Of a DNA stretch of 18,296 bases, positions 5,110 through 5,197 are shown piece by piece (within the stretch, counting starts at the first letter, position 1; each line of letters begins with the position of its first letter). This DNA is from a virus (Duplodnaviria > Heunggongvirae > Uroviricota > Caudoviricetes), in IMG/VR virus record IMGVR_UViG_2529292921_000023; one strand, 5' to 3'. The notes under the pieces were generated by a model. That model saw nothing but the letters and a program-made list of their open reading frames with translations. It made no database searches and was not told the origin of the DNA. A program made the position numbers and the translations under genes.

Positions 5110-5131
5110 AAAAGCCCCGAAAGGGGCTTCT
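5110..5131. terminator. GNRA-tetraloop hairpin, candidate bidirectional terminator (tR'-like for the late strand, and terminator of the moron gene)
   Basis: AAAAGCCCC-GAAA-GGGGCTT. On the minus strand it is followed by TTTTATCATTT; on the plus strand by CTATCAAAATCATTT. Confidence 0.5.
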
Positions 5132-5167
5132 ATCAAAATCATTTACGCATTATTCCGCATGCTTAAA

Positions 5168-5197
5168 AGAATACATGACAGATTCGGACAAAATCAA
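5168..5197 (-). promoter_or_regulatory. Candidate pR'-like late promoter just downstream of Q
   Basis: Minus strand: TTGATT (5197-5192), 18-nt spacer, TATTCT (5173-5168), about 25 nt after the Q stop. Motif match only. Confidence 0.25.

Follow-up and report, generated by a model that had tools for sequence, protein, structure and literature searches.

The question raised by this locus is where late transcription would begin behind the gene for a Q antiterminator, and what it would mean for a gene that lies in its path and faces the other way. The stretch analysed, referred to throughout as the window, is the 18,296-nucleotide (nt) IMG/VR virus record IMGVR_UViG_2529292921_000023. On its minus strand, a Q gene is followed by a promoter-like block and a terminator hairpin (T1), then by an accessory, or cargo, gene on the opposite strand, by a second terminator-like hairpin (T2) and by the lysis genes. 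The block behind Q is read here as the Q-dependent late switch, of the Q-lambda type, of a lambdoid prophage, and on the sequence comparisons described below this reading is given a probability of roughly 0.8.

The probable promoter and terminator block behind Q

The Q gene and the parts of the block are listed with the evidence for each.

6053-5223, minus strand: Q gene, 276 amino acids (aa), of the Q-lambda family; zinc-ribbon arm enlarged by a 69-aa insertion (PF03589, 7UBM, alignment with lambda Q)
5225-5223, minus strand: Q stop codon TAA (sequence)
5197-5192, minus strand: TTGATT, -35 hexamer of the late promoter candidate pR' (sequence; TTGAYT behind nearly all of 80 Q relatives)
5191-5174, minus strand: promoter spacer, 18 nt (sequence)
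5190-5187 and 5180-5177, minus strand: candidate Q-binding element in the spacer, two TGTC words 10 base pairs (bp) apart (geometry, Q coupling)
5173-5168, minus strand: -10 hexamer TATTCT, TATGCT in the family consensus (column counts, 107 distinct relatives)
5164-5159, minus strand: second -10-like hexamer AAGCAT (family AATCAT), then G; candidate sigma-dependent pause element (column counts, likeness to lambda)
5160, minus strand: predicted start site, an A (pyrimidine/purine at 5161/5160)
5149-5148, minus strand: predicted pause at +12/+13, T-G (column counts, lambda spacing)
5135-5106, minus strand: T1, a tR'-like terminator with stem 5135-5123/5118-5106, loop UUUC at 5122-5119 and tail UUUUAUCAUUU at 5113-5103 (folding)

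The product of the Q gene matches Pfam PF03589 with an expectation value (E) of 2.6e-52 and the Q-lambda structure 7UBM in the PDB with an E of 2.3e-35, and is 32% identical to lambda Q over the full length. The 69-aa insertion sits between two CxxC pairs (in the region of residues ~115-215), such that the protein carries four CxxC-type repeats that match a DnaJ zinc-finger domain. This Q-lambda-family gene lies immediately upstream of a predicted sigma-70 promoter, recognized at the level of sequence: TTGATT begins 25 nt 3' of the Q stop codon on the minus strand. An earlier, sequence-only reading of the window had placed TTGATT-18-TATTCT about 25 nt after that stop, and its coordinates and distances are correct.

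The promoter block travels with Q. A scan of IMG/VR yielded 474 Q relatives, of which the best 80 (76-100% identity) were used, and behind nearly all of these 80 the stop codon is followed by the block CTTGATTTTGTCCGAAnTTGTCnTGTATGCTTCTAATCATG. Around the block, the sequence 5' of the -35 hexamer is variable and the downstream leader is conserved only in part. A minority class carries TTGACTTTGCATAAAAtTGTC instead, with a split by locus of 66 to 11. The exact motif TTGATTTTGTCCGAANNTGTC is found in 120 IMG/VR stretches, 117 of which have the end of a Q homolog 22-64 nt upstream, in the same orientation. Among the remaining three, one is a chance match within a coding region, and another appears to retain a remnant of the 3' end of Q. 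Across the 107 distinct relatives, the -10 hexamer has T at its first position in 104, A at its second in 104 and T at its sixth in 105. The pR'-like promoter and tR'-like terminator that the sequence-only reading had proposed behind Q are therefore supported by the coupling to Q, the conserved signatures and the lambda-like anatomy of the sequence, rather than by the match of the hexamers to consensus.

The promoter spacer offers a candidate binding element for Q. The window reads TTGATT-T-TGTC-CGAATC-TGTC-ATG-TATTCT-TTT-AAGCAT-G, and TGTC-N6-TGTC has both the position and the 4-N6-4 geometry of ATTG-N6-ATTG in lambda; the layout of -35 hexamer, 1 nt, 4 nt, 6 nt and 4 nt is common to the two. 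In structures of Q-lambda, a 13-bp site is recognized at positions 1-4 by the helix-turn-helix (PMC9388147) and at positions 11-13 by the zinc arm, which is also in contact with sigma region 4 (PMC9388147). When the Q alleles that go with TGCA, rather than TGTC, as the upstream half-site are compared with the others, all differences fall within residues 219-276 and cluster at the predicted recognition helix (V236Q, R237S, T238S and T240S). Neither the downstream half-site word nor the zinc arm has a class-specific change between the TGCA and TGTC classes. As judged from these alleles, the co-variation of half-site and helix-turn-helix is consistent with the Q-lambda structure.

The second hexamer, 3 nt past the -10 hexamer, has A at its second position in 105 of 107 relatives and T at its sixth in 104, and is followed by G in 90. 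Both hexamers thereby carry, in 104-105 of 107 sequences, the pattern of A at position 2 and T at position 6 that is expected of sites for sigma region 2. The two positions that lie 7-8 nt past the -10 hexamer (5161/5160) are a pyrimidine in 103 and a purine in 106 of the 107, which fits a start at 5160. The columns at +12/+13 are a pyrimidine in 104 and a purine in 102, and the spacing of hexamer, G, 8 nt and YG equals that of G7...C16-G17 in lambda. By analogy, a pause at +12/+13 is predicted by keeping the lambda spacing. In 89 of 107 sequences a conserved ATG or GTG begins at the predicted +1, and in 31 of the 61 cases with ATG an in-frame stop gives a 5-codon open reading frame (ORF). A leaderless mini-ORF at +1 was nonetheless rejected, given that the in-frame lengths are 5, 7, 1, 2 or >20 codons and that the peptide is not conserved.

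The promoter is followed by T1, a 13-bp perfect inverted repeat that begins 32 nt past the -10 hexamer and contains an 8-bp GC core (5130-5111) that begins 37 nt past it. The free energy (dG) of the hairpin is -20.4 kcal/mol with all 13 bp and -12.9 kcal/mol for the 8-bp core. The leader folds with -25.8 kcal/mol (z = -5.1), and 0 of 200 shuffles fold as well. T1 is the only perfect-stem hairpin with a dG <= -10 kcal/mol and a T-rich tail on either strand of the 18.3-kilobase (kb) window; the scanner did not list it, probably because the maximal 13-bp stem takes up most of the T run. A pR' RNA that ends at T1 is predicted from the sequence to be ~50-56 nt long. T1 is an intrinsic terminator between the promoter and the late genes, with T2 as a probable second.

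The hairpin with a U-rich tail that the sequence-only reading saw behind the promoter is confirmed, but the GNRA loop that it described is not: the loop is UUUC on the strand with the tail, and GAAA only on the plus strand. The plus-strand fold has a dG of -17.5 kcal/mol and an A.C mismatch in the stem, and its tail, AAATCATTT, is not U-rich. T1 is not a bidirectional intrinsic terminator by this measure, as only the minus strand has a U-rich tract (UUUUAUCAUUU), the plus-strand tail being AAAUCAUUU.

Terminators are found at nearly all related loci. When the relatives are folded one by one, 98 of 107 have a hairpin with a dG <= -8 kcal/mol and a T-rich tail, and four further sequences (of the L071 type) have an obvious terminator that was missed by the filter. 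The median end of the stem is at +55 (quartiles +50 and +58), and 59 different hairpin sequences are represented. A case that counts against the proposed switch is Yersinia phage YP3 (L206, ~1210-1260), which has the promoter block without a terminator; the next annotated gene in YP3 opens ~10 nt after the predicted start, and the case is an exception or possibly a deletion. By an ORF-level call, loci with the next ORF in the sense (61 contexts) and in the antisense (52 contexts) orientation alike have the terminator; therefore, T1 is taken to belong to the Q module and not just to the end of the cargo gene. From 23 representative leaders, RNAalifold recovered just a 5-bp terminator core, with little credit for covariation. 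This weak consensus arises because the hairpins are too different to be aligned, so that the folding of individual sequences is the usable evidence. A small 5' stem at +2..+17 of the window fold was also considered and set aside: GG...CC is frequent in the relatives, but the register shifts and the consensus fold gives it no support. Rfam and ARAGORN found nothing in the window.

The anatomy of the sequence, the Q family, the coupling of promoter to Q, the hexamer signatures, the near-universal terminator and the gene order are directly established, and from them we infer promoter activity, an exact start, binding of Q to the spacer, a pause position, read-through and any effect on the cargo gene, in the following scheme. 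A sigma-70 polymerase would start constitutively at about 5160 from TTGATT-18-TATTCT. Without Q, in lysogeny, it would stop at T1 (5135-5106) to give an RNA of ~50-56 nt, and this stop would keep polymerase off the cargo and lysis genes. Once made, Q (6053-5223) would bind TGTC-N6-TGTC (5190-5177) and load on a polymerase held by sigma at AAGCAT-G (5164-5158), with a predicted pause at +12/+13. The Q-modified polymerase would then pass T1, about 1 kb of antisense sequence over the cargo gene and T2, and go on into the lysis genes.

The cargo gene, the probable second terminator and the lysis genes

Downstream of T1 in the direction of late transcription, the features are as follows.

4188-5108, plus strand: cargo (moron) gene, 306 aa from ATG 4188, within a 310-aa ORF that opens at 4176 (ORF list, homologs)
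4153-4158, plus strand: candidate -10 TAAAAT of a cargo promoter (conservation; GGAG precedes ATG 4188)
4084-4048, minus strand: T2, stem CCACAC 4084-4079/GTGTGG 4061-4056 and a run of eight T at 4055-4048 (folding, alignment)
4047-3724, minus strand: lambda/HK75-like spacer between tR' and the holin gene (96-97% identity to HK75 and other lambdoid phages)
3723-3508, minus strand: holin S, phage-21-type (Pfam PF04971)
3508-3011, minus strand: lysozyme R (Pfam PF00959)
3026-2547, minus strand: Rz (Pfam PF03245)

The late lysis genes S, R and Rz thus lie downstream on the same strand as Q (3723-2547), and the cargo gene both opposes and precedes them. The sequence-only reading was right that a late transcript from 5160 must cross the 306/310-aa gene in antisense. 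The probable length of the cargo protein is 306 aa, since ATG 4188 has a GGAG ribosome-binding site and the database homologs are of 306 aa. The guanine-plus-cytosine content of the gene is 35%, against 51% in the flanks. It is absent behind some Q alleles, and with this presence or absence among relatives and its deviant base composition it has the marks of a moron.

The cargo protein belongs to phrog_7003, a PHROG family that has no assigned function, and it has no match in Pfam, PADLOC or NCBIfam. Its AlphaFold model is confident (predicted local distance difference test score, pLDDT, of 90), and a Foldseek search with the model gave no significant match, the best E being 0.24 in the PDB and 0.018 in BFVD. 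The N-terminal beta domain has invariant C51, C56, H60 and C80, possibly a zinc site, and the C-terminal part is long and helical. One homolog (P0029, 77% identity) is represented in 756 contigs, named from Salmonella enterica.

The cargo gene has homologs of 97-100% identity (in close relatives), of 78% and of ~25%, which lie behind different Q alleles. They are always antisense, and their 3' ends always lie 115-131 nt past the Q stop. At other loci unrelated genes occupy the same place, so that the interval between tR' and the lysis genes is a slot for variable cargo. At L029, L059 and related loci, proteins of ~25% identity are encoded in the antisense slot, ~90-1040 nt past the -35 hexamer, and abut the terminator. 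From these sequences, the cargo family would seem either to have been in the slot since long ago or to have been exchanged repeatedly as alleles.

For expression of the cargo gene itself, GATAAAATAAACGG...GGAGCGATTCATG is kept in the relatives of 78% identity, as are the TAAAAT and the GGAG ribosome-binding site, although no good -35 was found near the TAAAAT at 4153-4158 in the cargo promoter region. The sole hairpin at the 3' end of the gene is T1, which has no U tail on the plus strand. Promoter-like matches of 8-10/12 also lie antisense within the gene, on the minus strand at 4509-4576, 4380-4408, 4318-4346 and 4242-4269, and matches of this kind are expected by chance at the base composition of the AT-rich cargo. 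If any of them fires, T2 would keep the transcript from the lysis genes.

In lytic growth, convergent transcription could, hypothetically, lower expression of the cargo gene. If the scheme above is right, the backwards-facing cargo might be insulated from pR' in lysogeny and overrun by Q-modified polymerase in the lytic phase.

T2 has a dG of -10.5 kcal/mol in isolation and is out-competed by an upstream hairpin in a 71-nt context fold. Its position and its run of eight T are the grounds on which it is still counted as a probable, weaker terminator. In an alignment, this T tract falls on those of tR' in lambda and HK75, and the identity to HK75 (96-97%) runs from 4059 downward; the 3' arm and T run of T2 derive from a tR' of the lambda/HK75 type, with a mosaic joint inside the hairpin. 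At three other loci (L002, L016 and L087), a terminator in the late direction again follows the cargo, which there has a terminator on either side.

Within the lambda/HK75-like spacer upstream of the holin gene, GAAGCCGGTTCGATTCCGGCCGCCACAACCCA at 3835-3875 (minus strand) resembles the T-arm and acceptor end of a transfer RNA (tRNA). Some phage records have a tRNA-Ser or tRNA-Thr annotated in the homologous stretch, and ARAGORN calls none in the window; 3835-3875 is probably a tRNA remnant. On the other side of the block, upstream of Q (6053-9538, minus strand), are genes for a 285-aa phrog_6204 protein, a primase with a zinc ribbon and Toprim domain and a ResIII/DEAD-type helicase. This replication module is unlike lambda O/P and is shared with the Stx2f phage phi467, and Yersinia phage YP3 has a similar order of primase and then Q.

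Weighing the explanations

Several observations weigh against the switch proposed here, and most of them are taken up here along with the alternative explanations. The first concerns the loading of Q. The promoter and terminator could be correctly assigned and Q still not be loaded via a pause at AAGCAT, if the element lies elsewhere or if this subfamily loads differently; of the alternatives this one survives best, although it too is considered somewhat unlikely. AAGCAT occupies -4..+2, 3 nt after the -10 hexamer, and so overlaps the predicted start, whereas in lambda, P22 and the K-12 Qin prophage the element occupies +1..+6, 6 nt after it. With this shift in register, the role of the hexamer as a pause element and the pause at +12/+13 are extrapolations. 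Part of the conservation of the hexamer (C at -1 and A at +1) could reflect mere start-site preference, as C-A at -1/+1 is expected of any start site. Inspection of the family consensus revealed no -35-like hexamer ahead of AAGCAT, and the 69-aa insertion falls in the arm of Q that in lambda contacts DNA and sigma region 4. The co-variation of the Q C-terminus with the spacer, described above, could also be plain linkage of adjacent DNA. In favor of loading at AAGCAT, start-site preference does not account for the A at the second position of the hexamer (105/107), which lies at -3. The distance from the hexamer to the spacer element varies by <= ~1 bp and, in the L052 type, is fixed even though the -10 hexamer shifts by 1. 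Moreover, the lambda spacing is kept both by the G that follows the hexamer and by the Y-G another 8 nt on, and inspection of the columns showed no further pattern of A at position 2 and T at position 6 elsewhere in the leader.

The second explanation concerns T1, which could be primarily the terminator or 3'-end stabilizer of the cargo gene itself, brought in with the cassette, with T2 as the functional tR'. The base of the T1 stem does contain the cargo stop codon, TGA at 5106-5108, and the hairpin also folds on the plus strand, as described above, with a GAAA loop. Hairpins of the AAGCCCC type mostly accompany the cargo gene family, including its homologs of 78% and ~25% identity, and it is the T tract of T2 that aligns with tR' of lambda and HK75. 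T1 may indeed serve the cargo gene as well. However, no U tract follows T1 on the plus strand (AAATCATTT), where the stem has an A.C mismatch in place of the G.U pair of the minus strand, which has the UUUUAUCAUUU tail. Relatives that have no antisense gene, or that have a sense gene next, keep a terminator at the same distance from the promoter, and one locus (L033) has a related hairpin and no cargo homolog. The one role does not exclude the other: T1 is likely to be shared and would keep its function as tR', and a T1 that belongs primarily to the cargo gene is improbable.

The last set of objections concerns the promoter. The hexamers match consensus at 8/12, under the 9/12 threshold of the scanner, which is why they were not listed, and the window contains 48 sites of equal or better quality, so that the match alone means nothing. 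Columns 0-20 of the table of 107 sequences are also biased by the search pattern for those loci that were derived from the pattern, and for these columns only the loci derived from Q count. That the late promoter lies elsewhere, at 4084-4175 (a position that the sequence-only reading had itself named as the alternative) or nearer the holin gene, and that TTGATT/TATTCT is a chance match, is nevertheless very improbable: although HK75-type phages have pR' directly before the terminator that aligns with T2, the minus strand of 4084-4175 has no promoter-like site and this segment travels with the cargo gene as the region upstream of it, HK75 homology begins no earlier than 4059, within the 3' arm of T2, and the HK75 pR' is therefore absent here, the HK75 Q is of another type (172 aa) whose promoter would not serve the Q of the window, and Q accompanies the 5197-5159 block in 117 of the 120 cases.

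Stx2f phages and known systems

The Q-dependent switch proposed for the window has a close counterpart in the Stx2f phage phi467, the source strain of which was isolated from haemolytic uraemic syndrome. The Q of phi467 is 98.9% identical to that of the window and is followed by a near-identical promoter block and T1, a frameshifted copy of the cargo gene, then a terminator and stx2f A/B. The candidate promoter is at the Q stop, ~1.5 kb upstream of stxA, with an antisense gene and two terminators between them. The authors of a study on stx2f prophages from 2023 could identify neither pR' nor the Q utilisation site upstream of stx2f (PMC10673567), and they mentioned a 276-aa PF03589 Q for two strains (PMC10673567). 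A 2024 paper that used phi467 as a reference did not discuss the promoter, and a literature search found no description of it.

If the assignment holds, the module might, at less than even odds, be the late promoter that drives stx2f in phi467. A late promoter would then be located for this type of Q, Stx2f phages included, and would be a concrete target for work on Stx2f production. For the study of transcription, the block would be a natural variant of the lambda cassette in which the pause element is possibly shifted and the arm that contacts DNA and sigma is enlarged. A fuller but doubtful proposal is that this Q subfamily, a Q-lambda core with a DnaJ-like two-zinc arm, loads at a pause element that overlaps the start, that the ~55-nt terminated RNA and the shared T1 together form a conserved docking point for backwards-facing cargo genes and that the phi467 module drives stx2f. 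A pause at +12/+13 would on that proposal come earlier than the +16/+17 of lambda, the one Q system checked on this point.

The lambda cassette reads TTGACT-T-ATTG-AATAAA-ATTG-GG-TAAATT-TGACTC-AACGAT-GGG, in which AACGAT at +1..+6 is the sigma-dependent pause element, GGG is discriminator-like and the pause is at +16 (PMC4005639). Like lambda, the window has a PF03589 Q with a conserved N-terminal segment and helix-turn-helix region, a promoter within 25-45 nt of the Q stop, a 4-N6-4 element one nt after the -35 hexamer, a -10-like hexamer followed by G, and an intrinsic terminator followed by the lysis genes. Unlike lambda, the spacer is of 18 nt rather than 17, and its words are TGTC rather than ATTG. 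The second hexamer comes 3 nt after the -10 hexamer rather than 6, with a predicted pause at +12/+13 rather than +16/+17 and no TTGACT-like -35 repeat before the pause-like hexamer. The leader is of ~55 nt rather than 194, and the zinc ribbon of Q becomes a DnaJ-like domain by the 69-aa insertion.

The compact design is shared with P22, for which P-late, its start site and t-late are annotated in GenBank together with gene 23, and with HK75, annotated with pR' and tR'. In both, the terminator begins ~30 nt past the start, and the constitutive RNA is of ~45-60 nt (~60 nt in P22 as annotated), so that some lambdoid phages normally have a short pR' leader. P22 keeps the exact AACGAT and Q-binding words of lambda, which the window does not, and the Q of HK75 is of a different type, with 172 aa. 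In P22 and HK75 no gene separates the terminator from the holin gene; the window has its cargo at this place.

The K-12 Qin prophage has a closer Q. YdfT (quuQ) belongs to the same Q subfamily with the zinc insertion, is 38% identical to the Q of the window, and is directly followed by a TAAAAT-N6-AACGATGGG promoter and a terminator. Behind the terminator, ynfS/cspF lie antisense to late transcription, and cspB and essQ follow. Qin differs in that its pause element is in the lambda register, its spacer words are others and its cargo genes are different.

The lambda bor gene, like the cargo of the window, is an AT-rich accessory gene on the opposite strand in the path of pR' transcription. It lies after Rz, whereas the cargo of the window sits between tR' and the holin gene, so that every late transcript crosses the cargo before it reaches any late gene; unlike bor, the cargo is also bracketed by two late-direction terminators. 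A further parallel is StxS, an Hfq-binding small RNA produced by termination at tR' in Stx phages (PMC7547250). The constitutive pR' transcript that ends at tR' in lysogeny is predicted for the window from sequence. StxS belongs to a cassette of the Q21/933W type and is processed from a longer RNA, whereas the RNA of ~55 nt in the window is a prediction. In short, the short-leader switch of the lambda/P22 type is of a known kind, for which P22 is a precedent, and antisense cargo in the late path has precedents in bor and Qin.

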